Below are positions 8,858 through 63,634 of a stretch of DNA of 64,000 nucleotides, one piece after another. Numbering within the stretch: the first letter of the stretch is position 1; every line of letters begins with the position of its first letter. A program made the position numbers and the translations under genes. Under the pieces are notes generated by a model that was not told the origin of the DNA, did no database searches, and worked only from the letters and a program-made list of their open reading frames with translations. Source of the DNA: a virus (Duplodnaviria; Caudoviricetes); the IMG/VR virus record IMGVR_UViG_3300033463_000076, positions 16,113 to 80,112 of that record; one strand, 5' to 3'.

Positions 8858-8936
8858 TGCCCGTGACTGGAATCGAACCAGCGCGTACCCCTGAAAGGAG
8901 GATAAAGGAGGTGTTCTACCGCTGAACTACACGGAC
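8858..8936 (-). tRNA. tRNA-like element with abnormal expanded anticodon loop (possibly a degenerate Glu-TTC)
   Basis: Acceptor GTCCGTG/CACGGGC, D-arm GTTC-AGCGGTA-GAAC, T-arm GCTGG-TTCGATT-CCAGT. The anticodon arm carries a tandem CCTCCTTT duplication. Confidence 0.6.
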
Positions 8937-12783: not shown

Positions 12784-13590
12784 CTACATATCTACGAGCT
12801 CGTCGATCTCATCGTCGGTGTACGGCTCCTCTTCCTGACTGTCGTCGTCTTCCGACTTGGAACCCTTAGTGCTGGGGGGAGCACCTAACTTACCCAGACC
12901 ACTCTTCTTGCGTTCCTTATTCATTTCCTCGAGGTCGTCACGAACTTCGTCCAGGAACTCCTCGAAATCGTCCTCGTCATCGAACTCCTGCTTTTCGAAG
13001 CGGCGGAGTACCGACTTGCCGAACGTTCCCGTGTTTTCCAGGACCTTCTCAAGACGCTTGCGGCGGCGGTCAACGGTCTTGTCACCCTTGAGCTTGGCGA
13101 TTTCGTCGTTCTGACTCTTCACCAGCTTTGTCAGATTCTTGATCTGTCTGGAGAGATAGTCGTTGTGACCGTCGTCATCGTCATCCTCGTCGTCATCTTC
13201 GTCATCGTCCTTAGACTTCTTGGACTTACCGCCCTTCTTGGACTTCTTCGACTTCTTTGGTTTCTTGCCTTTCGGCTCGTCATCATCGTCATCGTCGTCG
13301 TCATCATCCTCGTCATCATCGTCCTCGTCATCATCATCGTCATCCCCACGGGCTGCTTCCAACTTGCGACGGACAATGCGGCTCGAATGTTTCTGAGCGG
13401 CTTCGATGTAAGGGATTGCGTCATCGATAGCATTTTCGATGGCATTCGCTACATCCTCGTCAGAGGCGTCTTCCTCGATGTCGAGTTTTTTGGCAATGGT
13501 AGCGGCAAAACTCTCAACATCCTTGCGCTCGAATCCGTACCTCTTCACCTTCGGTTTCAGCGCTTTGATTACTTGCTGTAAATACTTCAT
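12784..13590 (-). CDS. Capsid scaffolding-like protein with a poly-Asp/Lys low-complexity tract
   Basis: Likely start MKYLQQVIK at 13590; long acidic runs; position upstream of the decoration and capsid genes. Confidence 0.55.
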   Translation of the reverse strand: MKYLQQVIKALKPKVKRYGFERKDVESFAATIAKKLDIEEDASDEDVANAIENAIDDAIPYIEAAQKHSSRIVRRKLEAARGDDDDDDEDDDDEDDDDDDDDDDEPKGKKPKKSKKSKKGGKSKKSKDDDEDDDEDDDDDGHNDYLSRQIKNLTKLVKSQNDEIAKLKGDKTVDRRRKRLEKVLENTGTFGKSVLRRFEKQEFDDEDDFEEFLDEVRDDLEEMNKERKKSGLGKLGAPPSTKGSKSEDDDSQEEEPYTDDEIDELVDM

Positions 13591-13621
13591 TACTCTTTGC
13601 TTTAGTTTAATGATTATTACT

Positions 13622-13729
13622 AAAAAAGGTCCACGCAGAGCCGAAACGCTGCGCAGACCGGACACTCTATAAGAGCAATGAGAGTCTTTTCGTCCTTACT
13701 GGGTGGCGTACAGCTTCATACGCTTTCTG
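13622..13729 (-). ncRNA. Candidate small RNA / structured leader displaying CAUUGCUCUUA in a hairpin loop
   Basis: Promoter at 13734-13764; hairpins GCGTA/TACGC and ACTCT-[CATTGCTCTTAT]-AGAGT; terminator GCGCAG/CTGCGT plus GTCC/GGAC and T6. Confidence 0.6.
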
Positions 13730-13733
13730 ACCG

Positions 13734-13766
13734 CAAAAATAGTTAAATCTATTTGAAAAACAAATA
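13734..13766 (-). promoter_or_regulatory. Promoter (TTTG-N19-TATTTTTG) with TATTTG-N5-CAAATA operator
   Basis: -7 box 13734-13741, operator 13750-13766. Confidence 0.7.
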
Positions 13767-13804
13767 AACTACGCATTTTTAACAATCTTTATTATATAAC
13801 AATA

Positions 13805-13832
13805 GGAGTAGGCGAGAAATCCCACCTACTCC
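13805..13832 (-). terminator. Intrinsic terminator
   Basis: GGAGTAGG/CCTACTCC 8-bp hairpin downstream of the 13863 gene. Confidence 0.65.
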
Positions 13833-13862
13833 CTTGAAACAAGTGTTAGCAATGAAACGGCC

Positions 13863-14429
13863 TCAGAAATTGAAGTCGTAGAACTTATACGGTTTCATCT
13901 GGGGGACATACCTCAGACCATAGGCATCATACCAACGACCGTCGGCGTGCAAGCGGATGGCCACCACCTCGCCCTCTGGATCGGGTTCTATCTTCCAGTC
14001 CTGAACCGAGTTATCGAAATGGCCGAGGAAACCGCCCATGACGAACGAAGTAGACCGTCTCTGCTTGCTCTCCTCCGTTTCCTCTGCCTTCATACGTCTT
14101 ACCATCCACAGCTTCTCCGTGCGCTCCTCGATGACCTCATAGGGATTGGCGTCGGAGTGCAGGCACTGGGCCATGTACTTCTTCTCCAGTGACATGAAGG
14201 TGGCGTGCTGCAGCTCCTCCTTCAGCGACTTTATCTTCTCCTGGTACGGCTTCATCTTCGGCCAGTAGGCTTCCCATGCAGTATGCCTTGCCTCCTCAGT
14301 ACCGCCACTGGCTACAATATGTGACACACGCTCCATATTGACCTCATTCAGTTTCAACTCGTTGTCTGCAATGAGCTGGTTCAGCTCCATTGCGTAGGAA
14401 ATCCATTCTTCTCTTTTCATATCAAACAA
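13863..14429 (-). CDS. Hypothetical phage protein
   Basis: 188 aa ORF tightly packed in the early-gene operon. Confidence 0.7.
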   Translation of the reverse strand: MFDMKREEWISYAMELNQLIADNELKLNEVNMERVSHIVASGGTEEARHTAWEAYWPKMKPYQEKIKSLKEELQHATFMSLEKKYMAQCLHSDANPYEVIEERTEKLWMVRRMKAEETEESKQRRSTSFVMGGFLGHFDNSVQDWKIEPDPEGEVVAIRLHADGRWYDAYGLRYVPQMKPYKFYDFNF

Positions 14430-15703: not shown

Positions 15704-16012
15704 TTAACACTTTGTTACTGAACCTGAAACGATGTACGTCTTAACAGCGAACTTGGCTGCTATCTCATAGGGGACACGCTCACAGTGATGGTCCATTTCC
15801 CACTTCTGACAGAACTGCTCACCCTCCTGGGATATGCAGAGGACTATCTTGCCCTCAGCTGAGCGGTTGACCATTTCCTGCAAGGCGTTGATGCAATCGA
15901 GGCAGAGATAAGCACTGCTGCGCCTCATTGACTTCGGATCAAACGAATAGACGTTGAACTTTCCGTCTGTCTGCTTGTAGTATTCTACTACTTTCTTCTG
16001 TGTTACTTTCAT
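15704..16012 (-). CDS. Hypothetical early protein (TAAGAGCAATG-tagged)
   Basis: 102 aa, first gene after repeated promoter block 1. Confidence 0.7.
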   Translation of the reverse strand: MKVTQKKVVEYYKQTDGKFNVYSFDPKSMRRSSAYLCLDCINALQEMVNRSAEGKIVLCISQEGEQFCQKWEMDHHCERVPYEIAAKFAVKTYIVSGSVTKC

Positions 16013-16160
16013 TGCTCTTACTTGTTTAAAACGATGTTTCTTAATGTTCCTTTATTATGGTGTAAAGGTAGTGATTTTTTTCCAATTATGCAAGCAAAAC
16101 ACCCATTATTTTGTTAACCAGACTTAACCAGCGGAAAGTTTAACTTTACCTAACTTTTGC
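16010..16160 (-). repeat. Repeated early promoter/leader block, copy 1
   Basis: TTGC...ACTACCTTTACA promoter (16071-16080), CATTAAGAAAC box (16036-16046), TAAGAGCAATG start, upstream TTAAC/CAAAAGTTAGG motifs. Confidence 0.8.
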
Positions 16161-16164
16161 AACG

Positions 16165-16259
16165 AAAAACGCGCCCTAACCTCACGGTCCGGACGCGCAA
16201 GAGAGCTTGGTCAGTCGCTAAGAGCAATCCAAACGACTGCCTTCTCTCATTAAGAAACG
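16165..16259 (-). ncRNA. Candidate antisense small RNA complementary to both leader boxes of the early genes
   Basis: Consensus promoter TTTG(16291-94)-N20-TATCTTTG(16263-70); GTTTCTTAATG at the 5' end; ATTGCTCTTA in the loop of a CAGTCG/CGACTG hairpin; terminator CGCGTCC/GGGCGCG with GTGA tetraloop plus T5. Confidence 0.7.
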
Positions 16260-16308
16260 CTGCAAAGATAGAACATTTTTTCTGTCCTACCAAATTTTCT
16301 ACGATATT

Positions 16309-17880
16309 TCATCTTCTCGGCCTAATCTTTCTCATAATCTCGGCGTCTGACATCGTATCGATCTTCGGATAGAACGTGTTGGCCAGTGCATCCATCCAGT
16401 CGGGCGACCGTCCGAGGCGTTCCTTGATATCGTCCTTCGGCTCTATGATGATACGGCCGTCGCTCTGGAACTTCCAGTGCGTATTGATAGCCTCCTCCAT
16501 CAGTTGCTCACACGGCGGCAGTGCTGGGTAGTAGCCGTTCTTCGGGTCGAGCCATTCCCTGACCTTCCAATACAGGTACGCCCTCATGTTGGCGAACTCT
16601 ATCTGCCCAGTGCTGTCCTTGAACCCCTTGACACCCTCCGAGAACTTGCAGGAATAGACGTTCATCTTATACGTAGCCCTCGACTGCTCGTTCAGCTCCT
16701 TCAGCCTCGAGTAGACACCGGCACCCTCACCGATGGTATCGATGAAGGCCTTGTCACGCTTCCTGTCCGTCAGGGCATTGACAACCATGCCGACAACGTG
16801 CATATGGTCGGCCTGACCTGCCGACTGGTGGGCAATGAACTGCGGCACGTAGTTGCCGTATCGGGGACACAGGATAGAAGCGTCTCGACCCATACCGGCC
16901 ACGTCGACACCCAGCAGGCATGACTTCTTGGGCTTGAACTTCTCTTCCTGCAGCTCCTTCCACCTGTTGACGGCCAGCTCGATCCACTCGTACGGTATGA
17001 GGGTATCGGTAGACACCTTCGGGAACAGACCCAGCACCTTGACACGGAACAGGTCGTTAGGACGGTAGTAGTTACCCTCCCACTCGAAATCGCCGTCGCC
17101 TACGATGAAGTCGTCCTTACTGATCTTCGTGCACCACGTCTTGACCTTCTCGGCCACCCACCTATAGTCCACCTGACCAGGAATCAGGTTCTGCTTCGTC
17201 ACGACATTCTCAGCATTGAGCGAGTTCAGACGGAACTTCTGAAAGCGGTCCTGAGTCATCGCCTTGGCGGCATAGCCCGTAGGGATGTTAGGGTTGAACA
17301 CCAGCAGCAGACGAGAGTTACCTTGCAGGTTACCCTCGATGGCGTTGAAAATCGTCTCTGAGATACCAGTGGCCTCGGTCACGACGAACATCACGTTAGC
17401 GGCATGGAATCCTGACCACGCCTCCGTAGCGTTGTTGTCGGCCTTGAATCCCGTCAAGAACCACTCGGCATAGTCCGTACGGATATCGTTCGCCACCAGT
17501 CTGCCAGGACAGGCAAACGGGAACTTGGCCCTTGCGGCCTTAACAAGTCTGTGGATTTCAGGCTTCATGATGTTCTCCACCTGACGGCCTGTAGGTGCGG
17601 TCATGGCGACCTTCGTGTTTTCCGACAGTATCTTTCCCGTAGGGTCGAACCTCGGCGTGAGATACATGAAGCATAATGAAGCGCAAGCGGCCACGAAGTC
17701 CTTACCTCGCGCTGTGCCGCTTGCTACTGCGGTCAGTGGATTGACCTGCACGGACTCAATGATAGCCTGCTGCTCTCTGTCAAGCCTTGCGCCCAACACG
17801 TCGCGTACAAACCTGTTCCAATCCTCTGCCCAATACTTAATCGCTTCATTTATCAGCCTCTGTCTCTCGGTGAGATTCAT
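16309..17880 (-). CDS. terL: Terminase large subunit
   Basis: Walker A-like VASGTARGKD, Walker B-like VVTEATG, nuclease GVDVAGMGRD and C-terminal GRSPDWMDAL. Confidence 0.92.
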   Translation of the reverse strand: MNLTERQRLINEAIKYWAEDWNRFVRDVLGARLDREQQAIIESVQVNPLTAVASGTARGKDFVAACASLCFMYLTPRFDPTGKILSENTKVAMTAPTGRQVENIMKPEIHRLVKAARAKFPFACPGRLVANDIRTDYAEWFLTGFKADNNATEAWSGFHAANVMFVVTEATGISETIFNAIEGNLQGNSRLLLVFNPNIPTGYAAKAMTQDRFQKFRLNSLNAENVVTKQNLIPGQVDYRWVAEKVKTWCTKISKDDFIVGDGDFEWEGNYYRPNDLFRVKVLGLFPKVSTDTLIPYEWIELAVNRWKELQEEKFKPKKSCLLGVDVAGMGRDASILCPRYGNYVPQFIAHQSAGQADHMHVVGMVVNALTDRKRDKAFIDTIGEGAGVYSRLKELNEQSRATYKMNVYSCKFSEGVKGFKDSTGQIEFANMRAYLYWKVREWLDPKNGYYPALPPCEQLMEEAINTHWKFQSDGRIIIEPKDDIKERLGRSPDWMDALANTFYPKIDTMSDAEIMRKIRPRR

Positions 17881-20505: not shown

Positions 20506-20577
20506 ACCGCCGTGAAGGATTCAAACCCCCAACTCCAGCTACGAGTGCTGGGCTTTATTCAGTTAAGCTAACGGCGG
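20506..20577 (-). tRNA. tRNA-Arg(TCG)-like, non-canonical loops
   Basis: Acceptor CCGCCGT/ACGGCGG; D-arm GCTT..AAGC; anticodon stem CCAGC/GCTGG with loop ACTCGTA; T-loop TTTGAAT. Confidence 0.65.
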
Positions 20578-20612: not shown

Positions 20613-20644
20613 CAAATATACAAACATTATTTGAAAAACAAATA
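20613..20644 (-). promoter_or_regulatory. Promoter (-7 TATATTTG) with TATTTG-N5-CAAATA operator
   Basis: -7 box 20613-20620, operator 20628-20644; drives the tRNA-MTase-ParB-terS-terL unit. Confidence 0.65.
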
Positions 20645-21470: not shown

Positions 21471-21543
21471 TGGCGGGAAACGGACTCGAACCGCTGACCT
21501 TGAGTGTATGACGCTCACGAGCTACCAACTGCTCCATCCCGCT
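21471..21543 (-). tRNA. tRNA-Met(CAT), initiator-like
   Basis: A1:C72 mismatch, D-arm GAGC-AGTTGGTA-GCTC, central CAT, T-arm AGCGG-TTCGAGT-CCGTT. The anticodon stem lacks the three G:C pairs of true initiators. Confidence 0.8.
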
Positions 21544-22039: not shown

Positions 22040-22073
22040 TGTAAAGGTAGTAAATTTATTTGAAATACAAATA
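22040..22073 (-). promoter_or_regulatory. TACCTTTACA promoter with TATTTG-N5-CAAATA operator
   Basis: Promoter core 22040-22049, operator 22057-22073. Confidence 0.65.
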
Positions 22074-28575: not shown

Positions 28576-28626
28576 ATCACTTACGTTAAAAACTTGTTTC
28601 TTAATGCTGGCCAACCGGCCGCTCTC

Positions 28627-28783: not shown

Positions 28784-29440
28784 TTACAGGTTGTCTTTGT
28801 AGTCCGAAACATTCTCCGCGCAGCTGATCTGAGTGGCACCGCGACGGTTAACGAAATACTTCTCCAGCGTTCTCTTGATGCGGATGACCTGAATCTGGCA
28901 GTATTCCATGCCGACAGGGAAACCATCTTCCGAGTTGTCGAAGTAACCGAGGGTACGGAACGACTTCAGGCCTACAGACTTGGCAGCTGCGCTTCCTTCG
29001 TCGTACTTGTCAAAGCCAGTACCGTCAGACTTGACGAACATTCGAGTGAAGCGGACGGTATCGGTGTCGCTTGACTGCTTGAAGTACTCCTGAACGATAC
29101 AGAACTGGTTCAGCAGTGGGTCGTTACTGCGAAGAAGCTCGTCGATCCAGTAAGGCGAGAACGTTCCAGTGGTAGCCACGTCGAACTTGTAAGGCTCCTG
29201 TTTCTCCTCCTTAGCCTCTGCCGGCTGCTCGGGCTCTACAGGCTCCAGGTCTTCCTCTTTCTCCACTCGGACATTACCCTGATACTGCTTCTTCAGGGAA
29301 GCCTTCAATGCTGATACACTGCGCTTACCTTTCAACTCCTCCAGCTGCTTGAAAAGCTCCTCGGACTTGATGGTTGCTGACTCGAAGTTCTCACTCTCGA
29401 AAATGCTCTTAATCTGAGCCTTAATCTCTTTTTCTTTCAT
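28784..29440 (-). CDS. Hypothetical early protein (TAAGAGCAATG-tagged)
   Basis: 218 aa, first gene after promoter block 2. Confidence 0.7.
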   Translation of the reverse strand: MKEKEIKAQIKSIFESENFESATIKSEELFKQLEELKGKRSVSALKASLKKQYQGNVRVEKEEDLEPVEPEQPAEAKEEKQEPYKFDVATTGTFSPYWIDELLRSNDPLLNQFCIVQEYFKQSSDTDTVRFTRMFVKSDGTGFDKYDEGSAAAKSVGLKSFRTLGYFDNSEDGFPVGMEYCQIQVIRIKRTLEKYFVNRRGATQISCAENVSDYKDNL

Positions 29441-29590
29441 TGCTCTTAATTTTTTAAAAACGTTTCTTAATATGTTTATTGTTTACACTTGTAAAGGTAG
29501 TGAATTTTCTCGAATTGTGCAAGGGTTACGCTCTTTATTTTGTTAACCGGACTTAACTGGCGAAGAGTTTAACCTTTCCTAACTTTTGAC
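29438..29590 (-). repeat. Repeated early promoter/leader block, copy 2
   Basis: TACCTTTACA 29490-29499, ATTAAGAAAC 29462-29471, TAAGAGCAATG start. Confidence 0.8.
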
Positions 29591-29781: not shown

Positions 29782-29973
29782 TTAATACATTTTCTGGACG
29801 AACAGCTTTGTATTCCAGTCATTGACATACGTGAAATACTTCTCACGGGGCTCACAGACCAGGTTGACTTTCTTCTTCTTGTCCTCAAACCACTGATCTG
29901 CTTCTTCCTGAGTCTTGAACCTCTTGGTCTCTCTCCTCAGTGACTTCTCGTTTAAAATGATGATTCTGACCAT
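29782..29973 (-). CDS. Small hypothetical early protein (TAAGAGCAATG-tagged)
   Basis: 63 aa after promoter block 3. Confidence 0.65.
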   Translation of the reverse strand: MVRIIILNEKSLRRETKRFKTQEEADQWFEDKKKKVNLVCEPREKYFTYVNDWNTKLFVQKMY

Positions 29974-30120
29974 TGCTCTTACTTCTTTTAGTTGTTTCTT
30001 AATGTTTTATTTTTATGATGTAAAGGTAGTGAAAAAGCGCGATATATGCAAGGTTTTCGGCGAAAAAATACTTAAAAAGTGTTCAGCGACCGATTATTTA
30101 ACCTTACCTAACTTTTGCAG
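29971..30120 (-). repeat. Repeated early promoter/leader block, copy 3
   Basis: TACCTTTACA 30019-30028, CATTAAGAAAC 29994-30004. Confidence 0.8.
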
Positions 30121-34132: not shown

Positions 34133-34175
34133 CAAATATAGCAAAAAAACTCCGAAACTATTTGAAAAACAAAGA
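34133..34175 (-). promoter_or_regulatory. Portal promoter (-7 TATATTTG) with a variant operator
   Basis: -7 box 34133-34140; TATTTG-AAAAA-CAAAGA at 34159-34175. Confidence 0.55.
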
Positions 34176-34349
34176 GAATTAACATTCTTTGTCAAAATAG
34201 CCTCGGAGTAACATTAAGAAACTTGCTCGTAAAAAAGCAATGAAACGCCTCACGGCGGTATTTCCTAAACTAACTATTATTCCACCTAACTCGCATAGCG
34301 GCGACTGGCGTGTAGTGGGGTAGGATTCATTAGCTACACGCCAACTACG

Positions 34350-36433: not shown

Positions 36434-36868
36434 CTACACGGCCGGCAGGAAACCGCGTCCCTGCCGAGTCGTATCTGTCGTACGTCCTAAATACTTCTTG
36501 ACCTCCCAAATGACGTCGCTGACGGTCTGGAAGTACACCTCAGAGCGTTCAATCTTAATACCGACGCTTTCGATCAACTTCTGCTGTGTCTTGTTGAAGA
36601 AATCAGCAGCCAGCTTACAGCTCTCCGTGTAGTTCATGCCACCGAAGCGGTAAACGATCTCCCAGAGCTTATCACGAACTTTCAGGTCTGCCTCAACCGC
36701 CTTGGCTATCTCCCTGGCTTTGTTGACACGGGCCTGATTCATCTTAACCCACAACTTACAGAACTCGTCTTTGTCGAGGTCTGACTGGTTGTAAACTTCG
36801 TTGATGTGCCAGTACTCGGCTTCTGAAACCTTCATCTGGACTCTTGCTTCAAATTCTGACTGTAACAT
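36434..36868 (-). CDS. Hypothetical early protein (TAAGAGCAATG-tagged)
   Basis: 144 aa after promoter block 4. Confidence 0.7.
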   Translation of the reverse strand: MLQSEFEARVQMKVSEAEYWHINEVYNQSDLDKDEFCKLWVKMNQARVNKAREIAKAVEADLKVRDKLWEIVYRFGGMNYTESCKLAADFFNKTQQKLIESVGIKIERSEVYFQTVSDVIWEVKKYLGRTTDTTRQGRGFLPAV

Positions 36869-36990
36869 TGCTCTTAATTCTTTAAAAAACCGTTTCTTAA
36901 TGTTTTATTTTGATAGTGTAAAGGTAGTGAAAAACGGCGATATACGCAAGTATTTCAGTCTTTATTTTCTTAAAAAGTGTTCAACCAAAA
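36866..36990 (-). repeat. Repeated early promoter/leader block, copy 4
   Basis: TACCTTTACA 36917-36926, CATTAAGAAAC 36892-36902. Confidence 0.8.
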
Positions 36991-38494: not shown

Positions 38495-38671
38495 CTACAA
38501 TCTACCGAAGTGGGCATCTGCTCCACGCTTCGCTGATAAACAACTCGGATAGCCAGTAGCGTGCGTTACCATACTTCCATCATCCTGCACGGTTCCAACG
38601 TGCCAGTCCGGACGTGCAAACCTCTTTCCTGCGTTTGCGTTCCAAATCGAATAACCTTTGTACTTAATCAT
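38495..38671 (-). CDS. Small hypothetical protein (TAAGAGCAATG-tagged), missing from the ORF track
   Basis: 58 aa MIKYKGYSIWNANAGKRFARPDWHVG... starting at the conserved tag. Confidence 0.6.
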   Translation of the reverse strand: MIKYKGYSIWNANAGKRFARPDWHVGTVQDDGSMVTHATGYPSCLSAKRGADAHFGRL

Positions 38672-38676
38672 TGCTC

Positions 38677-39141
38677 TTATTTCTTTAGCGTTTCCAAAAT
38701 AACCATATTCTCCTTACACTTGCTGACGATGAAGCGATACGACCAACCACCTTCCGAGAACTCCTCACGGAACTTCAGTCCCAGCTCTTTCAGCTTAGAA
38801 CGGACACCCTGCTTCTTCTCGTCCAACTTCCAAAGAGTATCGACACTCACACCAAATGACGTAGCCTGAATGCCAAACAGCGGCTTCAGGTACTGGTAGA
38901 GGTCGATGTACGTATTCTTAACCTCAGCGAACAGGCGCTGTGATATCCACTCCCACGTTACTTCTTTCTCCTTCGGGGTCTTCATCCACTTCGAATAGTA
39001 CTGACCGTCGCCACCCTCGAAGCCTGAAACCAAAATCTTAACGGCTTTCTGCGGTGTCGTCTCGTAGCACAGATCATCCACGAAGTCTATCACGAAACCT
39101 TCTGACTTGACTCTCTCGATTGTCTCTTTGCTGATATTCAT
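38677..39141 (-). CDS. Hypothetical protein
   Basis: 154 aa. Confidence 0.6.
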   Translation of the reverse strand: MNISKETIERVKSEGFVIDFVDDLCYETTPQKAVKILVSGFEGGDGQYYSKWMKTPKEKEVTWEWISQRLFAEVKNTYIDLYQYLKPLFGIQATSFGVSVDTLWKLDEKKQGVRSKLKELGLKFREEFSEGGWSYRFIVSKCKENMVILETLKK

Positions 39142-39145
39142 ATCT

Positions 39146-39382
39146 CTAACAGATTTCGAGGTTCTTCATTTCGTTCTCGTCGAAGGTGTAGCCCATCTTA
39201 GCCATTTCCTTCACTGCAGCTTTCTTGGCACCACTGGCTGTACTATAGATGCGACCCTTACCGATAGAAAACCAGTACTCGCCGTCCTGGATAGCAGTCA
39301 CCATTATCTCGTCTTTCTGTCCTCCGTTAAGCGAGAACTTTACCGACTTTCTTTCCGAATTGTTACACTTGATTGTTACCAT
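39146..39382 (-). CDS. Hypothetical early protein (TAAGAGCAATG-tagged)
   Basis: True start likely MVTIKCNN at 39382; the longer track start lies inside the promoter. Confidence 0.65.
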   Translation of the reverse strand: MVTIKCNNSERKSVKFSLNGGQKDEIMVTAIQDGEYWFSIGKGRIYSTASGAKKAAVKEMAKMGYTFDENEMKNLEIC

Positions 39383-39526
39383 TGCTCTTACTTCTTTTTG
39401 ATGTTTCTTAATGTTTTTATTTATGGTGTAAAGGTAGTAAAAAAACACGATATTTGCAATAGATACACTCTTTATTTTGTTAACGAAACTTTAGCAGCGG
39501 AAAGATTAACCTTTCATAACTTTAGC
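39380..39526 (-). repeat. Repeated early promoter/leader block, copy 5
   Basis: TACCTTTACA 39427-39436, CATTAAGAAAC 39403-39413. Confidence 0.8.
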
Positions 39527-41240: not shown

Positions 41241-42437
41241 TCAGAACTTTCTCGTTTCCTTTGCCTTGAAATTGTACACTGGCTTGATAACCTCAAGCAC
41301 CTCCACCGTAGGCTCTATGCAGTCGATAATCTCCTGCATCGGCTTATAGACCATAGGACTCTCGTCGAGGGTTTCAGGACAGACGGACGTAGAATACACA
41401 TCCTTCATTTCTGACTTGAACTGCTCTACATCGAGCGTCTGGAAGGCTTTCTTTCGGCTCATTAAGCGTCCAGCTCCGTGCGGTGCAGAATACAGCCAAT
41501 CAGGATTGCCCTTACCGACACAAATCAGCGAACCGTCGCGCATATTCATCGGGATAATCAGACGCTCACCTCTCATAGCCCTCACGGCACCCTTACGGAC
41601 TGTCAGGCGGTTCATGCTGTTGTCGATGTAGTTATGCACCGTCTGGAACATATCGTATGCGTGGAGTTCCATCTTCTTACAGATCGTTCTCATTATCACA
41701 TGACGATTCAGCTCTGCATACTTCTGAGCAATCATCATATCATTGATATAGTCGGCAATCCACTCAGGACCGATGCCGGCCAAATCACCATCGACTGACG
41801 GAATTTTCAACTTCTGCAGCTCGCTCTGGATATCCTTCTGACGTCCTTCCTTCTTCAGTCTGTCAATCAATTCCTGCCTCTGCTTTTCATCGATCTTCTT
41901 CGCTATGCCACAAGCAGCCTCAATTCCTTTCTGCTGATAATACTCACAGATACGGACACCGAGGTTACGGCTTCCTGAATGGATGACGATATAGAAACGG
42001 CCGTCCTTATCCACGTTCGCCTCGATGAAGTGGTTACCACCACCCAGCGTACCGAGCGAACGATAATCGTTATCGATATTGATAATCGACTTCGCTTTCA
42101 GGAACAGCAGTTCCGGCATCTGCTCTATGGCCTCCTTATGGATATTGAACCCAGACGGAACGAACTCGTTAATCACTTCGTCGAGCTTCTTCAGATCGAC
42201 CTCAGCGTGCTCGAAGTTGGCTACGAGCATACCACATCCGATATCCACTCCTACGGTGTTCGGCACTACCTGGTCTTTCAGTTCGATGACCGTCCCGATA
42301 GTACAGCCTTTCCCCGCATGGCAGTCAGGCATAACTCTAATCTTGCAATCCTTATAGGCATCGCACTCACTCATTTTCTCAATCTGCCAAGTGGCTTCAT
42401 CTTCCACCGTCTTAGCGAAAATCTTAACTCTTTCCAT
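41241..42437 (-). CDS. rtcB: RtcB family RNA ligase
   Basis: MPDCHAGKG, GVDIGCG, GTLGGGNHF, HSGSR, HNY and HGAGR motifs all present. Confidence 0.95.
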   Translation of the reverse strand: MERVKIFAKTVEDEATWQIEKMSECDAYKDCKIRVMPDCHAGKGCTIGTVIELKDQVVPNTVGVDIGCGMLVANFEHAEVDLKKLDEVINEFVPSGFNIHKEAIEQMPELLFLKAKSIINIDNDYRSLGTLGGGNHFIEANVDKDGRFYIVIHSGSRNLGVRICEYYQQKGIEAACGIAKKIDEKQRQELIDRLKKEGRQKDIQSELQKLKIPSVDGDLAGIGPEWIADYINDMMIAQKYAELNRHVIMRTICKKMELHAYDMFQTVHNYIDNSMNRLTVRKGAVRAMRGERLIIPMNMRDGSLICVGKGNPDWLYSAPHGAGRLMSRKKAFQTLDVEQFKSEMKDVYSTSVCPETLDESPMVYKPMQEIIDCIEPTVEVLEVIKPVYNFKAKETRKF

Positions 42438-47714: not shown

Positions 47715-49262
47715 CTAACCGAATAACGTCGTTTGAACTGTCTCTGCCTTAGCTGCTGGCTTGCGCTTCTTCTCGGTCTTCTTGGGAAGGTTCCAGCCCT
47801 TACCCTTACTGGCCTCCACGTTGAACTTGTACCAGACATCTTCATCCAGGAACTCGAAGTGCATCGTACCCTTCTTGTAGCCGATACACTTGAAGAAACC
47901 CCACTCGAACCACTTACCCCAATCGGGCTTCAGACGGTTGACTGCATCGTTCAGTGTCTCGGTCTCGTCGAAGTTCGTACCGGTCAGGTAACACAGGGCC
48001 TTATGAACATCCTCGATGATATCCACGTTACCGCTTCCCCTGTATCTGATACTCAGCTTCTCCTTCTCCCACGAATAGTCGTTGCGTGTCATCCAGTCCA
48101 CTATGAACCGCTTGTTGACCATATAGTTCGCATTGGTCTTCCACGTCTCTCCAGCGGTGCTGTTCTCTGCAGACAGCGAACAAATCTTATCGAAGGCCTC
48201 GATGATAGCCCTCTGCATCCGCTGGCCGTTCGTCTGTACGACCATGTCGATCACCTTGTATATGTTACCCATCGTGAACGGCACCTGGCTCTGCTGCTCA
48301 ACGAACTTGTTTATCTGCTCCCTGAGCTGCTTGGTAGCATACTTCTCCATATTCATCTTGCGGAATATGATATGCCAGTAGTACTTCTGCAACACCTTCT
48401 TATACTCTTGGTGGGTAATGGTAGTGCCACTGCTGCTACTCTCGTCCCTGCTGACGATGGCGCCGAACGTGACAGGCAGATATCCGTAGGTCTGCTTGAC
48501 CTGCTTCACCTCTCCAGTCTTCTCGTCCCTCTCCGGACGGTAGTCGTAGAAATCAGCCATTTCGTTAATCTCCTTCGAGGCCTTCATGACGTTATCGAAC
48601 AACTTGACCGCCGAGACGTATCGGTTGACGATATCCCTTACGAAGTTGTACTGCATCAAGCCTTCGGTACTTCCTCCGGCGATATCCGTATCATACTGGT
48701 CGAAGAAATAGCCAGCGAACTCGTCTTCTCCCTGACCTTCCTTGTACAGCTTTACGAGCGAGACGTATACATTGGTACGTCTCTCAGCCTTCTTGAACAC
48801 GTCACCCAGGAACTCAGACCTACCATACAGCTTCACCGTCTCTAACAGCTTGGCATTCGTCTTATTCCACGAACTCTTCTCGAGGTTGCTGTCATTGCAG
48901 ATGGCAATCACCGTACAGCCTGGAGGCGCTATCTCGAAAGCGTGCAGTATGTGTTCTGCTCCTCGGCTAAACGGCGGGTTCATCACGATCATGTCGATGT
49001 GGCTGACCATTTCCGACGTGACCGTCAGGAAATCGTTCGCTATTATCTGACACTTACCCCTCAACAGCTTCAGGTTGTAGGGGTCGTTCTCACAGGCAAT
49101 CACCTCACGGGCTCCGTTTCTCTTGAGCCAGTCTACGATATTGCCCTTGCCGGCAGACGGTTCGAGAATCGTCTTGCCGACAAAATCATCACCCATCATC
49201 ATCTTTGCGATGACTTCATCGGGCGTGGGATAGAAATCAGGGTTTTCCGAAAAAATACTCAT
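47715..49262 (-). CDS. N6-adenine methyltransferase fused to a DUF4942-like domain (TAAGAGCAATG-tagged)
   Basis: DFYPTP, LEPSAGKG and MNPPF motifs; C-terminal FFKCIGYKKGTMHFEF. Confidence 0.85.
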   Translation of the reverse strand: MSIFSENPDFYPTPDEVIAKMMMGDDFVGKTILEPSAGKGNIVDWLKRNGAREVIACENDPYNLKLLRGKCQIIANDFLTVTSEMVSHIDMIVMNPPFSRGAEHILHAFEIAPPGCTVIAICNDSNLEKSSWNKTNAKLLETVKLYGRSEFLGDVFKKAERRTNVYVSLVKLYKEGQGEDEFAGYFFDQYDTDIAGGSTEGLMQYNFVRDIVNRYVSAVKLFDNVMKASKEINEMADFYDYRPERDEKTGEVKQVKQTYGYLPVTFGAIVSRDESSSSGTTITHQEYKKVLQKYYWHIIFRKMNMEKYATKQLREQINKFVEQQSQVPFTMGNIYKVIDMVVQTNGQRMQRAIIEAFDKICSLSAENSTAGETWKTNANYMVNKRFIVDWMTRNDYSWEKEKLSIRYRGSGNVDIIEDVHKALCYLTGTNFDETETLNDAVNRLKPDWGKWFEWGFFKCIGYKKGTMHFEFLDEDVWYKFNVEASKGKGWNLPKKTEKKRKPAAKAETVQTTLFG

Positions 49263-49287
49263 TGCTCTTAGTTCTTTATTGCGTTTC

Positions 49288-49584
49288 TTAATCTAAACTC
49301 AGCTCCTTATAGTTGAAGCACGGCCACTGGCTGATATCAACGAAATCGAAACATCCGTACTCGACCATTACGATCTCCTCGTCCTTAATCTCGTACAGGT
49401 GTCCGCTCCATGACTGCATTTCCTCCGGACCGTCGAGGAACATGACGGCCACCTGGCCAGCTTCCTCGTCTGTGAATACTCTGAAATCCTTGCGGGTCTG
49501 CTCGATACCTGTCAGCTTGAGACCGTCGGCTATCAGGTTGTCGACTTCCTTCAAGATGCTGCTCTTTGTCTTTTCCGTAATCAT
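49288..49584 (-). CDS. Hypothetical early protein (TAAGAGCAATG-tagged)
   Basis: 98 aa after promoter block 6. Confidence 0.65.
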   Translation of the reverse strand: MITEKTKSSILKEVDNLIADGLKLTGIEQTRKDFRVFTDEEAGQVAVMFLDGPEEMQSWSGHLYEIKDEEIVMVEYGCFDFVDISQWPCFNYKELSLD

Positions 49585-49730
49585 TGCTCTTACTTCTTTA
49601 AGTGTTTCTTAATGTTCCTTTTGATGTTGTAAAGGTAGTGAAAAAACACGATATTTGCAAGGTTTTCGCTCTTTATAAACTTAAAAAGTGTTCAACAGAC
49701 TCTTATTTAACCTTACCTAACTTTTGCATC
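49582..49730 (-). repeat. Repeated early promoter/leader block, copy 6
   Basis: TACCTTTACA 49628-49637, CATTAAGAAAC 49604-49614; very similar to copy 3. Confidence 0.8.
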
Positions 49731-52079: not shown

Positions 52080-52201
52080 TTAAAAGCAAAAGCAGGAAGG
52101 GCGGTCGATTTACCCTTATCAGCGGCTCATGACTTCCGCCTATCCTGCTTGTTTGTTTGAATTGTGCGGTAAAGTTAAGTATTTTATTTGAGAAACAAAT
52201 A
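52080..52201 (-). promoter_or_regulatory. rep promoter with TATTTG-N5-CAAATA operator and a terminated structured leader
   Basis: -7 variant TAACTTTA 52170-52177, operator 52185-52201; AAGCAGGA/TCCTGCTT and GGCGG/CCGCC stems followed by T-runs. Confidence 0.55.
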
Positions 52202-53915: not shown

Positions 53916-54031
53916 AAGGAGCGGCAGGATTCGAACCTGCGCTTACAGAAACGAGCTGTCTTGTCTTACGCTGCCACTCAAGGGCTCGCCGCTTTGCTCT
54001 CTGCCGTTCTAACCTCTTTAACTACACTCCT
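53916..54031 (-). tRNA. tRNA-like gene with a 43-nt insertion in the anticodon arm (possible intron; spliced anticodon GCA, Cys)
   Basis: Acceptor AGGAGTG/CGCTCCT, U73, D-arm GTT..GG..AAC, T-arm GCAGG-TTCGAAT-CCTGC; the anticodon stem GCAGA/TCTGT encloses the insert. Confidence 0.6.
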
Positions 54032-57616: not shown

Positions 57617-58478
57617 GTGCCTTCATAATCAGCGAGTTTCCGAATCCCGAGTACTCACCGATATGCTGCAGGAAATGGTTGGCACCTCCCGCATCGGTTA
57701 TCGTACTGATGGACTCCTCGATCTCGGCGAGTGCCTTGTTGTACTCGTCGACCTTAGCCTGCTTGTTGCCAATCATCTGCTGATACTTGGCGATAATCTG
57801 CTTCTCGATGAAGTCGTTTGCGCCAGTAGGCTTGCCGTTCTTATCGAGAATCGTCTGCAGGAACATCACGCCTGGCAGCATACAGGTGTTCTTGCCGTCG
57901 TTGACATCCGTCGGGTCGAACGTGATGGAGCGCTTCACATATCCCTGCTCGTTCTTCATTTCGAGATATCCCAACAGGTCGAGCTCAGTCACGATGCTGT
58001 TGTAGTTCTTCTCTCGGAGGGCTGGGATGTAGACCGTATCGTCCTTGGCTCCCTTACGGGTGTCACGGTGGGCGACGAAGATGATGTGCTTGCCGAGTCC
58101 CGACAGTCTGTCTACGAAGTTCTTGAACTCCGTGTTGATGGCCGTCCAGTCCTGAACCTTCGGCTGTTTCTGTCCGCACTTGAAAGCGATGATGAAGTCC
58201 ATCATCTTTCCGACGGTATCGACCACGATCGTCTGATAGTCCGACAGGTCCTCGTTCAGCACGTTCAGGACATCCTGCCAGCAGGTTACCTGTACGATAC
58301 CGACGGAGTCATTCAGGTGGTTCTCATTGACACGCTTGACACCGTTGTCGAAGTCAAGCAACAGCGGCTTCGGAGCCGACAGTGCGAGGGTTGTCTTACC
58401 CATACCAGCCTGACCGTAAATCATCATCTTGACGGTCGTCTGGATTTGAAGTTCATTACTCTTACGAATTAAACTCAT
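57531..58478 (-). CDS. AAA_24 / Sak4-like ATPase annealing protein (TAAGAGCAATG-tagged)
   Basis: IYGQAGMGKTT, LDFDNG, VVDT and FVAH motifs. Confidence 0.88.
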   Translation of the reverse strand: MSLIRKSNELQIQTTVKMMIYGQAGMGKTTLALSAPKPLLLDFDNGVKRVNENHLNDSVGIVQVTCWQDVLNVLNEDLSDYQTIVVDTVGKMMDFIIAFKCGQKQPKVQDWTAINTEFKNFVDRLSGLGKHIIFVAHRDTRKGAKDDTVYIPALREKNYNSIVTELDLLGYLEMKNEQGYVKRSITFDPTDVNDGKNTCMLPGVMFLQTILDKNGKPTGANDFIEKQIIAKYQQMIGNKQAKVDEYNKALAEIEESISTITDAGGANHFLQHIGEYSGFGNSLIMKARDLFGKKVKALGLVYNKESKQYEDAAQA

Positions 58479-58512
58479 TGCTCTTAATTTTTTAAAATGT
58501 TAAACACTAAAA

Positions 58513-59070
58513 CTACTTATCTCTAAAAATGTTATTATTGTCAGCATATTTCACAAACTCGGCCTTCTCGTGGATTCCGAGCTTCAGATAGACGTTCTTC
58601 CTGTGAGTCTTAATCGTCTCGGGCGACTTGAAAAGACGCTCTGCGATCTCGTCGACCTCCAGGCCGTCGTAGTACATCTTCATCACCTCCAGTTCCGTCT
58701 TCGACAGCTTGGAGTTGAAGCGTGGCATACATACTCTGTCCTGCATGAAGCACTCACCCCTCAGCGGACACTCCACCTTCTCGAAGTGGAAACGTCCCGA
58801 ACGGTCAATGTCCGTCTTTGTCGTGTCGAGCTTTCCGAAGTTGCACTTGCAGAACCTCCGGACGATCAGGAACAGGTAGTACGTGACGTTGGCCGAACTC
58901 TTCTCGTAGTGCTTTGACAGCAGCTTGTAGGCCTCGGGATAGAACTCACGTATCATGTCAATCATTTTCTGAATGACATCGGTCATCCCCTCCTCCAGCT
59001 TGGCAGTCCGTCCGTCATCGGTGTGGAACCACAGCTCGTCGTTGATTGTGTAGAACTCTAATCCTTCCAT
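58513..59070 (-). CDS. LuxR-type HTH regulator
   Basis: C-terminal LSKTELEVM...IAERLFKSPETIKTHRKNVYLKLG; N-terminal CxCxxG...CPxRGEC motif. Confidence 0.88.
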   Translation of the reverse strand: MEGLEFYTINDELWFHTDDGRTAKLEEGMTDVIQKMIDMIREFYPEAYKLLSKHYEKSSANVTYYLFLIVRRFCKCNFGKLDTTKTDIDRSGRFHFEKVECPLRGECFMQDRVCMPRFNSKLSKTELEVMKMYYDGLEVDEIAERLFKSPETIKTHRKNVYLKLGIHEKAEFVKYADNNNIFRDK

Positions 59071-59312: not shown

Positions 59313-59400
59313 TACCTTTGTATCGTTTTAATTAGAATTACAGTGTAAAGGTAGTAATATTTTTCGAGAATTACGTAATATTACACGGAAATATTACCTA
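59313..59400. promoter_or_regulatory. Lysis-lysogeny switch: overlapping divergent promoters and GTAATATTAC operators
   Basis: Rightward TACCTTTG 59313-59320, leftward TACCTTTACA 59344-59353, palindrome 59375-59384 plus half-sites. Confidence 0.7.
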
Positions 59401-59429
59401 TCTTAGATATTTTTAACTTGGCTAAAGGT

Positions 59430-59816
59430 ATGTTTAGACTTAGAGACTTTCGGACTGACCTCGGACTGACGCAGAAGGAACTTATGACAATCCTGAACGT
59501 CAGCCAGACAAGCGTTTCTTTCGTGGAGAACGGTACGCGCAATCTCACCAAGGAACAGATGCAGATTCTCATTGACAGGTACGGCGAGGAAACGGTGGCC
59601 AAGTACCAGACTGACGACGATATTACACCCTCAGATAATATTCGACGTAATATTACAGCAGAACTGCCCCGTGAGCCGAGCGAGGTCTATCTTTCGCTTG
59701 TTGACATCATCAACCACCAGCAGGTTCAGATGGATGCCCTTCTCGAGAACAACACCCTCCTGCAGCGTCGCATAGACAAGCTGCTGTCGATCATCGAAAA
59801 ACAATACCAGGCATAA
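59430..59816 (+). CDS. CI-like XRE HTH repressor
   Basis: LRDFRTDLGLTQKELMTILNVSQTSVSFVENG. Confidence 0.85.
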   Translation: MFRLRDFRTDLGLTQKELMTILNVSQTSVSFVENGTRNLTKEQMQILIDRYGEETVAKYQTDDDITPSDNIRRNITAELPREPSEVYLSLVDIINHQQVQMDALLENNTLLQRRIDKLLSIIEKQYQA

Positions 59817-61349: not shown

Positions 61350-61449
61350 TCCACGCTACCAGTGCGCACACTACGAAGAACAGGCACATCCAGTCAGGGA
61401 ACGTCAGTGCCGCCAGTGTCACAGACACGATAATGTTTACTTGTCTCAT
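61297..61449 (-). CDS. Small membrane peptide (TAAGAGCAATG-tagged)
   Basis: Likely start MRQVNIIVSV at 61449; two hydrophobic stretches. Confidence 0.5.
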   Translation of the reverse strand: MRQVNIIVSVTLAALTFPDWMCLFFVVCALVAWSEKPAKSSTENGKGSVC

Positions 61450-61469
61450 TGCTCTTACTTTTTTGTTTC

Positions 61470-61817
61470 TTAACTGCGCAGGTTCAGCCACTGGTATCTC
61501 TCCTGGGCCTCCCACTGCATCTTACTCTCTTGCGCGTCTCTCTCGGCGTCCGACCATTTGGGCAGCGCCTTGCTGATGGCTTCCTCGATCCTCGGCGAGC
61601 GGTGCCAGTAGTTCGGGTGTACGACCACAACGGACTCCGCTGTCGGAGTTTCCCATGCGGGCATTTCCACCTCTATGAACACCTCGCCCACCTTGAACTG
61701 CAGGAACGCGTACGAACGTCCGTCGGCTATCGTCTGCTTCATCTCCTCGAACATCTCGGAGCTGATGGACTTGGCCAGATGGCTGACGTCTTTCGGGTTG
61801 AGTTTCACGTATTCCAT
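61470..61817 (-). CDS. Hypothetical early protein
   Basis: 115 aa, first gene after the 61890 promoter. Confidence 0.6.
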   Translation of the reverse strand: MEYVKLNPKDVSHLAKSISSEMFEEMKQTIADGRSYAFLQFKVGEVFIEVEMPAWETPTAESVVVVHPNYWHRSPRIEEAISKALPKWSDAERDAQESKMQWEAQERYQWLNLRS

Positions 61818-62054: not shown

Positions 62055-62340
62055 CAAAAAACCTGCAAATAGCCTGCAAGTATCAAAGCGAGTTTTTCGC
62101 AGTCCGTTTAAATAAAGGGGGTTCAGGGCTTTTGCGGCACGTCTGGAAAGCGTGTAAACGACAAAATCGTTTCGCAGGTTCGAATCCTGTTCTCTCCGCA
62201 GCGAAACCCCGATAAACAGAGGGCTTGCGACATCATTAAGAAACAACAAAAGGCTGTCAGAAACTTGCAAAAAACGTCAGGTTTGCGCAAAAACACCTGC
62301 AAATAACCTGCAAAACCTGCAAATAACCTGCAAGCCTGAA
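62055..62340. mobile_element. attP region with ACCTGCAA arm-type repeats
   Basis: CCTGCAA repeats on both sides of the tRNA-Ser fragment (about 62061-62080 and 62297-62333), directly upstream of the integrase. Confidence 0.75.
62133..62198 (+). pseudogene. 3' two-thirds of tRNA-Ser(GGA): att core
   Basis: CACGT-CTGGAAA-GCGTG anticodon arm, long variable arm, T-arm and 3' acceptor strand TCTCTCC-G; the matching 5' acceptor and D-arm are absent. Confidence 0.85.
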
Positions 62341-62353
62341 ACATTTAAGAGCA

Positions 62354-63634
62354 ATGGCTACGACGAAATTCTATCTCGACACCCGTGCCGTGTCCGCTGG
62401 CGAACCGGCACCCCTCAAGATTGCTGTCACCAAGCACGGCAAGACAGCGCTGTACTCCCTCGACGTGAAGCTGCAGCCCTCCCAATGGGACAATCACAGG
62501 CAGGTCATCCTCAACCACCCCAACAAGCTACGCCTGAACAACTTCATCATGAACCGCAAGACGGTTTTCGACAACTACCTCATGGAACTGACCAATGCCG
62601 GCGAGCTGGCACTGATGTCAGCGACTCAGATCAAGAACAGGATAGCAGGGCTTATCAATCCCGACTATGCTCCTGAGCGTGCCGACCTGTTCATACCGAG
62701 GTACCTTGCATTCGCCGAAACGCGCAACGCCGAGCGTACCCGTGAAATCTATCTCGAGACCCACAAGAAGATACTGCGCTTCGACTCCAAGGCCAAGCGG
62801 CTGTCCTTCGAGGACATCACCAAGTCATGGCTCGACCGCTTCGAGCACTACCTTTCGAGTGAGGAACACCTCGCACCGAACACCATAGCCATCCACCTGC
62901 GCAACATCCGCGCCGTAGTGAACGAGGCCATCGATGACGAGGTGACGGGCACCTACGCCTTCCGCAAGAAGAAAATCAAGTACCAGGCAACACCCAAGCG
63001 CTCCTTCACCCTCGAGCGGCTGCAGGAACTCTGGAACTATCCGTGCGAGCCTTTCCAGCAGAAATACATCGACGCCTTCAAGCTGTCCTTCCTGCTCATA
63101 GGAATCAACGTCGTGGATATCTGCAAGCTGACCTCCCAGAACATCGTCGACGGACGGCTGGAGTACATACGCTCCAAGACCGGACGCTTCTACAGCATCA
63201 AACTCGAGCCCGAGGCCATCGAGATACTGGAGAGGTACAAGGGCAAGGAACTGCTCTTCGGCCCTGCCGAGGGCTTCAAGAAGTACAAGACGTTCTCCAA
63301 CTCCCTCGACCGAGGGCTGAAGAACATCGGGCCTGTCATCCAAGTCCCTAACCCTGACTGGAAGCGGGGATGCAAGAAACACAGATACCACATCGAGCGC
63401 ACTTCCGCTTTCCCTGGCATATCGATCTACTGGGCTCGTCACTCATGGGCGACCATTGCCGCCGAGATAGACGTGCCTGACGCTACGATATCGGCAGGAC
63501 TGGGGCACGGCCACGGCGATAAGACGACGGCCATCTATGTAAACTTCAGGCAGAGGAAAGTCGATGAAGCGAACAGGGATATCATCGACTACGTCTTGGG
63601 TGTTGTTAGGCAATGTAAAGGTAGTAATTTTTAG
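62354..63634 (+). CDS. int: Tyrosine integrase (TAAGAGCAATG-tagged)
   Basis: Arm-binding N-terminus, SAM-like domain, YWARHSWAT and LGH...TAIY catalytic boxes. Confidence 0.95.
   Translation: MATTKFYLDTRAVSAGEPAPLKIAVTKHGKTALYSLDVKLQPSQWDNHRQVILNHPNKLRLNNFIMNRKTVFDNYLMELTNAGELALMSATQIKNRIAGLINPDYAPERADLFIPRYLAFAETRNAERTREIYLETHKKILRFDSKAKRLSFEDITKSWLDRFEHYLSSEEHLAPNTIAIHLRNIRAVVNEAIDDEVTGTYAFRKKKIKYQATPKRSFTLERLQELWNYPCEPFQQKYIDAFKLSFLLIGINVVDICKLTSQNIVDGRLEYIRSKTGRFYSIKLEPEAIEILERYKGKELLFGPAEGFKKYKTFSNSLDRGLKNIGPVIQVPNPDWKRGCKKHRYHIERTSAFPGISIYWARHSWATIAAEIDVPDATISAGLGHGHGDKTTAIYVNFRQRKVDEANRDIIDYVLGVVRQCKGSNF

Follow-up and report, generated by a model that had tools for sequence, protein, structure and literature searches.

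Results

The phage and the unit downstream of terL

The window, by which we mean the whole 64-kb stretch of DNA analysed, is part of an 80,112-base phage record and carries its genes almost entirely on the minus strand. The source phage is a temperate phage of gut Bacteroidales bacteria, with a gene set that includes terminase, portal, major head protein, integrase, a Sak4-like protein, RtcB, a methyltransferase-like protein and an XRE repressor candidate. Relatives of its terminase large subunit (55-90% identity) were found nearly all in Bacteroidota genomes or prophages, the nearest being in Prevotella, Bacteroides and Parabacteroides, and by description only the phage is like the Quimbyviridae/LoVEphage-like phages in size, host, integrase and RtcB (PMC8008677). 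The XRE-family protein may form a protein layer of immunity, and no S24-type repressor domain was found in the phage. A LuxR/GerE-type HTH regulator (58513-59070, minus strand) lies just 5' of the Sak4-like gene, the 3' portion of a probable Ser(GGA) tRNA gene lies immediately before the integrase and is likely attP (62140-62199, plus strand), and four tRNA-like genes were seen on the minus strand (8858-8936, 20506-20577, 21471-21543 and 53916-54031, one of them 116 nt long with an insertion).

59418..59816, plus strand: XRE-family HTH repressor candidate (HTH_3, 35.8 bits, above cut-off)
16309..17880, minus strand: terminase large subunit gene, terL (phrog_2, E 1e-28), directly upstream of sRNA-A
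16263..16294, minus strand: Bacteroidetes consensus promoter (-33 TTTG at 16294-16291, 20-nt spacer, -7 TATCTTTG at 16270-16263)
16165..16260, minus strand: sRNA-A, a predicted non-coding RNA of ~95 nt, with positional homologues after terL and without a conserved ORF relative to L002
16248..16258, minus strand: seed A', the 5' tail, exact complement of leader box A
16212..16239, minus strand: seed-B' hairpin, a 6-bp stem (16239-16234/16217-16212) around a 16-nt loop (16218-16233)
16165..16198, minus strand: intrinsic terminator, a GC-rich hairpin (16198-16170) with a GUGA tetraloop, then U5

Every sequence element named in the original prediction was found between 16165 and 16294 on the minus strand. 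As had been claimed, a consensus promoter stands right after terL, the unit closes with a GC-rich terminator bearing a GNRA tetraloop, the complement of box A near the 5' end is exact (16258-16248), and the plus-strand copy of the tag reads AATC and not ATG; the 5' end of the RNA is itself a prediction only (16260-16258). Seed B', at 16228-16219, is the complement of the start tag (box B) through the AU of AUG. It had been proposed to be exposed in a 16-nt loop, and stem, loop and complement are indeed present, but the minimum free energy fold closes most of the loop and leaves 4 nt of it, with a cost of ~4.8 kcal/mol to open the seed. The window's RNA also has a G in place of the C with which its relatives pair to the G of AUG. 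The predicted RNA is more stable than its shuffles (fold z = -3.67). Compared with L002 (labels of this kind, such as L002 or L084, denote related phage loci compared with the window), the seed-B' hairpin is unchanged although its flanks diverge, and the terminator shows one C-G to U-A change. Reading frames are not kept in L002, which rules out a small protein. A generic promoter and terminator scan, which is unsuited to Bacteroidetes, overlooked the terminator.

For both box complements to fall within 80 nt of each other anywhere in the genome, ~1e-6 occurrences would be expected under a Markov-2 model, a figure calculated post hoc. The order of the two complements is swapped relative to an inverted leader and the spacer differs as well, so that the unit is not a flipped leader copy or simple inverted duplicate.

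A start tag on dispersed early and accessory genes

Allowing at most one mismatch, the window holds 11 copies of box A (0.89 expected) and 19 of box B (3.6 expected), counts that no shuffle reached. Box B runs into the start codon of 11 genes; an exact box A lies upstream in five of these exactly tagged starts, or in 7-8 when one-base variants are admitted. In the two-box leaders, box A stands 7-15 nt 5' of tag B, the integrase being an exception at ~100 nt. The targets are dispersed over 46 kb, from 16010 to 62356, and most have their own promoters.

16010..16073, minus strand: tagged leader (A and B) with its own promoter, of a 102-aa gene directly downstream of sRNA-A
28596..28606, minus strand: box A without tag B, 5' of the PRTRC protein E gene
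29438..29472, minus strand: tagged leader (A variant and B), from box scans
29971..30004, minus strand: tagged leader (A and B), from box scans
36866..36902, minus strand: tagged leader (A and B), from box scans
38669..38679, minus strand: tagged start (B, with a degenerate A only)
39380..39413, minus strand: tagged leader (A and B), from box scans
49260..49293, minus strand: tagged start (A variant and B) of a 515-aa DNA-methyltransferase-like/DUF4942 gene
49582..49614, minus strand: tagged leader (A and B), from box scans
58476..58486, minus strand: tagged start (B only, without box A) of the Sak4-like annealing protein
61447..61475, minus strand: tagged start (A variant and B, short spacer)
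62234..62356, plus strand: integrase leader (box A at 62234-62244, tag B at 62346-62356)

The figure of about 11 dispersed genes, which one RNA was proposed to silence, agrees with the 11 tagged starts, but both boxes are found on only 7-8 of them. A variant of the start tag is also carried by the RtcB ligase gene (41241-42437).

The tag is concentrated in prophages. In Prevotella sp. KH2C16, 14 of the 26 copies fall in one 53-kb contig out of 3.2 Mb, and elsewhere in host genomes the tag occurs close to chance level; this near-chance frequency rules out a general host start motif. The tag has a G at position -3, where Bacteroidetes starts favour A (PMC7366714). The target boxes are predicted to be accessible, with 0.1-3.5 kcal/mol needed to open them. 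When the 464 candidate starts of the phage were ranked by seed duplex, tagged starts took 8 of the top 12 places with both sRNA-A seeds combined; with the loop alone they rank 6-46.

Further antisense copies at late-operon borders

The antisense copy after terL is one of three, all of which lie at late-operon borders (the terL end, the capsid leader and the portal).

13620..13730, minus strand: sRNA-B, capsid-operon leader, with three predicted helices and a full anti-start seed; conserved
34195..34265, minus strand (provisional): third element, a GNRA hairpin followed by B' and A' in linear form, 5' of the portal promoter

sRNA-B is predicted to be a second regulator acting on the same start tag. 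Its seed is easier to open than that of sRNA-A (1.4 against 4.8 kcal/mol), and it ranks the 11 tagged starts 1-9, 11 and 13 among the 464. Since sRNA-B has the seed in common with sRNA-A and places the tagged starts nearer the top, sRNA-A would not be the sole master of the regulon, and the description of it as a 'master' RNA was overstated. Some tagged phages (L086, L162, L163, L181 and L197) have sRNA-B and lack sRNA-A. The third element keeps both boxes in the sister phage L223.

Some further features were seen around these elements. The next gene after sRNA-B, which probably starts at 13590, carries a C to U variant of the tag at 13588-13598 on the minus strand, found also in L002, for which a G-U wobble with the seed would be expected. 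At 13785-13863 (minus strand) a short copy of the anti-start seed follows a stop codon and precedes a strong terminator, in a flank that resembles the third element at 34241. A 3'-end element of the L084 lineage (L234-L236), comprising the anti-start seed, part of A' and a terminator, is like the third element of the window. In the sRNA-B homologues of L086, L004, L100 and L181, the 3' arm of helix 1 seems complementary to the terminator loop, with matching changes, which would make a possible antiterminator; this pairing is weak in the window's copy.

Conservation and seed-leader covariation

Of 212 related loci from Bacteroidales phages, 152 have a unit of promoter, seed and terminator directly after the terL stop. 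These represent 43 distinct sequences (terL identity 63-100%) and about 15 distinct lineages, most of the loci being near-identical human-gut phages. Homologues are carried by, among others, Prevotella vespertina A2879, Prevotella sp. KH2C16 and Parabacteroides faecalis AGMB00274. All the units have an exposed anti-start-codon seed and a terminator, usually in the order 5' hairpin, unpaired seed, and terminator with a GUGA loop. No run other than the seed is invariant in 20 diverse homologues, the seed has a mean unpaired probability of 0.81 against 0.05 for its flanks, and in the terminator two-sided compensatory changes occur family-wide in 7 of 8 consensus pairs. A -7 box of the same type precedes the unit in ~150 of the 152 loci, partly by construction of the search; no recognisable promoter was found for sRNA-A in the lineages L083, L170 and L085.

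The form seen in the window has a 5' tail and places the seed inside a loop. It is common to L002 and L084, with L003 intermediate, and these loci form one terL clade with the window (98%) in a quick tree in which many forks are open. A family covariance model built from the usual form, whose sequence-only alignment took in the terminator helix alone, matches the RNA of the window over its terminator half only (18.8 bits, E 0.03), and homology of the window's RNA to the family therefore rests on position, seed and the L003 bridge. In L032 (11580-11625) and L157 the terminator hairpin has the opposite orientation to that of every relative, through either recombination at the inverted repeat or an assembly artefact.

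Covariation of seeds with leaders is the strongest evidence for pairing in these comparisons. The longest complement to the cognate leaders is 12 nt in the window, 12 nt in L003, 17 nt in L084 and 14 nt in L092, compared with 6-10 nt for cross pairs among the four. In each of these lineages the 5' seed has changed in step with the leader of its own phage, a pattern that speaks for pairing between RNAs (permutation p 4e-4, calculated across 16 lineages that are not fully independent). The hairpin loop of L171 holds a 14-nt complement of the common gut-type leader (that of L004 and L009). At box B, L084 and L085 change leader G to A together with seed C to U.

In about 12 of the 16 lineages the 5' part of sRNA-A has no cognate leader match longer than 8 nt; two-site recognition would accordingly be optional. 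When entire prophages were searched, no partner for box A turned up in L093, L095, L100, L107 and L110. The original idea of an antisense RNA directed against both leader boxes is well backed by conservation, by covariation within the structure and by seed-target covariation, but recognition at two sites applies in some lineages only. In the most frequent human-gut type, the complement A' is located 5' of the predicted -7 box (intact in 66 loci and with a one-base deletion in 48). At ~11530-11545 of L009, and in 65 like loci, a 13-nt complement of the early leader 5' end is found between the terL stop and the predicted -7 box. Tag and RNA co-occur with p 6e-6, mostly inside one terL clade, so that kinship inflates this value.

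Promoters and timing

The sRNA-A promoter is a consensus promoter without the late-promoter palindrome and without the early-promoter motif. The absence of both operator types from it had been predicted, and both of these motifs, which are putative operators, are indeed absent. A 10-bp palindrome beside the XRE gene occurs only at two immunity-region promoters and is absent from six dispersed tagged promoters. Together, these features would suit a burst of expression at infection that RNA then silences in the lysogen, and it is plausible from the promoter sequence that sRNA-A is active in the lysogen. In L083, L170 and L085, where no promoter is recognisable, the terminase transcript would include the seed, an arrangement in keeping with late shut-off. 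A burst followed by silencing both in the lysogen and late in the lytic cycle is favoured by a small margin over late shut-off only.

The copies of the 10-bp palindrome, at 59370, 61915 and 61925, are candidate repressor operators by the XRE gene. A palindrome of the form TTTG-N5-CAAATA was seen at the -33 box at 13752-13764, 20630-20642, 22059-22071, 34161-34173, 52187-52199 and 2742-2754, including the promoters before capsid and portal, and may be an operator or a general strong-promoter context.

Discussion

The sRNA-A unit is real and conserved and is very probably a functional antisense RNA, and it appears on sequence grounds to control a tag-defined phage regulon together with at least one further regulator. 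Its role is best explained, and probably so, as that of a trans-acting antisense RNA that represses translation of the tagged early and accessory genes. The RNA would be made from its own host-polymerase promoter and ended by the intrinsic terminator. Its loop seed B' would pair in vivo from the bases before the start codon into the codon itself at the ~11 dispersed genes, with the 5' tail providing, in the window lineage, a second contact at box A, 11-15 nt upstream, on 7-8 of them. Blocking of translation initiation is the most likely action, the covered initiation region being closed to ribosome loading, and sRNA-A would share the repression of the tagged genes with sRNA-B. As the RNA would be absent at infection, the tagged genes would be expressed in a burst, and they would be silenced in the lysogen and late in the lytic cycle as sRNA-A builds up.

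Other readings of these data were weighed against translational repression. The direction of control could be reversed, with the early leaders as the signal, either through seed pairing that alters read-through into the late operons as in an attenuator or through titration of the small RNAs. Every antisense copy does adjoin a terminator at its late-operon border, and by eye the 3' arm of helix 1 and the terminator loop look complementary in several sRNA-B homologues; however, sRNA-A and the next gene have separate promoters, which leaves read-through without obvious use, the seed lies outside the terminator stem in nearly all homologues, and in sRNA-B of the window the proposed switch helix is weak, making a reversed direction unlikely. 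It is quite unlikely that a phage protein binds the boxes, as DNA or as RNA, with the inverted copies as autoregulatory sites or decoys. Box A is positioned just past transcription starts, and in the commonest human-gut type its complement sits inside the predicted promoter spacer, but without exception the sense copies are placed at a start codon, the antisense copies occupy regions of structured units that are left unpaired, a decoy would require the same sense and not the complement, and each of five different box A sequences has a complement of 11-17 nt.

Pairing might instead activate or stabilise the tagged mRNAs, or aid initiation at an adenine-poor start context, as the G at -3 could suggest; this is very unlikely, as in most homologues the start codon itself falls within the duplex and the predicted open state of the target boxes leaves nothing for pairing to unfold. 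The core seed is nearly invariant across genera and could silence related incoming phages, yet we find it highly improbable that host mRNAs or competing phages are the main targets and the phage's own tags secondary, given that the tag is near chance in host DNA and the box A complement tracks the phage's own leader. A terminator after terL would be expected anyway, but chance, or a relic of an inverted leader beside it, is barely credible in view of the low expected number of paired complements, the swapped box order, and the conservation and covariation.

Translational repression as proposed for sRNA-A has counterparts among phage and host RNAs. C4 RNA recognises its target at two sites and is processed out of an operon transcript, whereas the sRNA-A unit has its own promoter and terminator. 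The C4 antisense RNA of phages P1 and P7 (RF01695; Citron and Schuster 1990, as cited in PMC8201110) is like sRNA-A in being a temperate-phage antisense RNA that controls phage gene expression, and its pairing of two target elements with two parts of the RNA is found computationally in sRNA-A, in the window lineage only. It differs in controlling its own icd-ant operon, where sRNA-A would target ~11 genes over 46 kb, and sRNA-A gives no match to the RF01695 covariance model, which rules out that it is a C4 RNA. sRNA-A would work like C4 and P4 CI RNA, both two-target phage antisense RNAs (PMC8201110, PMC4825925). CI RNA arises by processing of the transcript under its control and makes transcription end prematurely (PMC4825925); its targets flank the RNA in the controlled leader, in contrast to the stand-alone promoter-terminator unit of sRNA-A, whose seed would cover the start codons of unlinked genes.

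GibS (PMC7366714) and FopS (PMC11697453), trans-acting sRNAs of B. thetaiotaomicron of 65-145 nt with their own promoter and terminator, act at start regions to repress translation in Bacteroides despite the lack of Shine-Dalgarno sequences; GibS has two seeds (PMC7366714), and the FopS paralogues have a common seed and block initiation (PMC11697453). sRNA-A is predicted to share with them an unpaired seed over the target start region followed by an intrinsic terminator. They are host-encoded, with metabolic targets and imperfect pairing, whereas the targets of sRNA-A carry a near-identical, co-evolved tag; the R1 seed is not shared with sRNA-A and the published FopS consensus differs. No match to sRNA-A beyond terminator-level noise was found in Rfam at gathering and E-value thresholds. 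Prevotella-2 RNA (RF03043) is similar in outline to the family (hairpin, linker, GUGA terminator) but scored 21.5 bits on one sRNA-A homologue, far under its 72.1-bit cut-off, and an RF03043 search of five prophage-bearing genomes gave no match, with its controls also blank.

A repeated start tag is known from Cluster K mycobacteriophages, in which the short asymmetric SAS, of unknown function, stands at the starts of at least 11 non-structural genes, with a Shine-Dalgarno core inside it and a single inverted copy per K1 genome (PMC3203893). Sequence and host are unrelated to those of our phage and no antisense RNA was described (PMC3203893). In phage Angelica (HM152764, L243:33635) the single inverted SAS has 2 mismatches and stands after a strong hairpin, inside the annotated gp92. 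No description of the present tag-and-seed system was found in the literature searched, which under-represents subscription papers.

Known phage antisense RNAs mostly act on one linked gene or operon each. The tag-and-seed system would put any newly gained accessory gene under common control through a 10-nt start context, and would occur in very common gut phages. It would allow a direct test of anti-defence gene timing without a dedicated protein repressor and might account for the repeated start tags of other phages, and RNAs of the sRNA-A type could serve as natural long-seed silencers for Bacteroidales genetics. More tentatively, and with a likelihood that we place somewhat short of even, widespread Bacteroidales temperate phages may have an RNA-only regulon, in which dispersed, start-tagged early and anti-defence genes with unrepressed promoters are silenced jointly by two or three antisense RNAs at late-operon borders. 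If true, the tagged genes would be expressed in a burst when the phage infects, control would act as a threshold switch, and phages with a common tag would be cross-immune, the variable second seed setting specificity.
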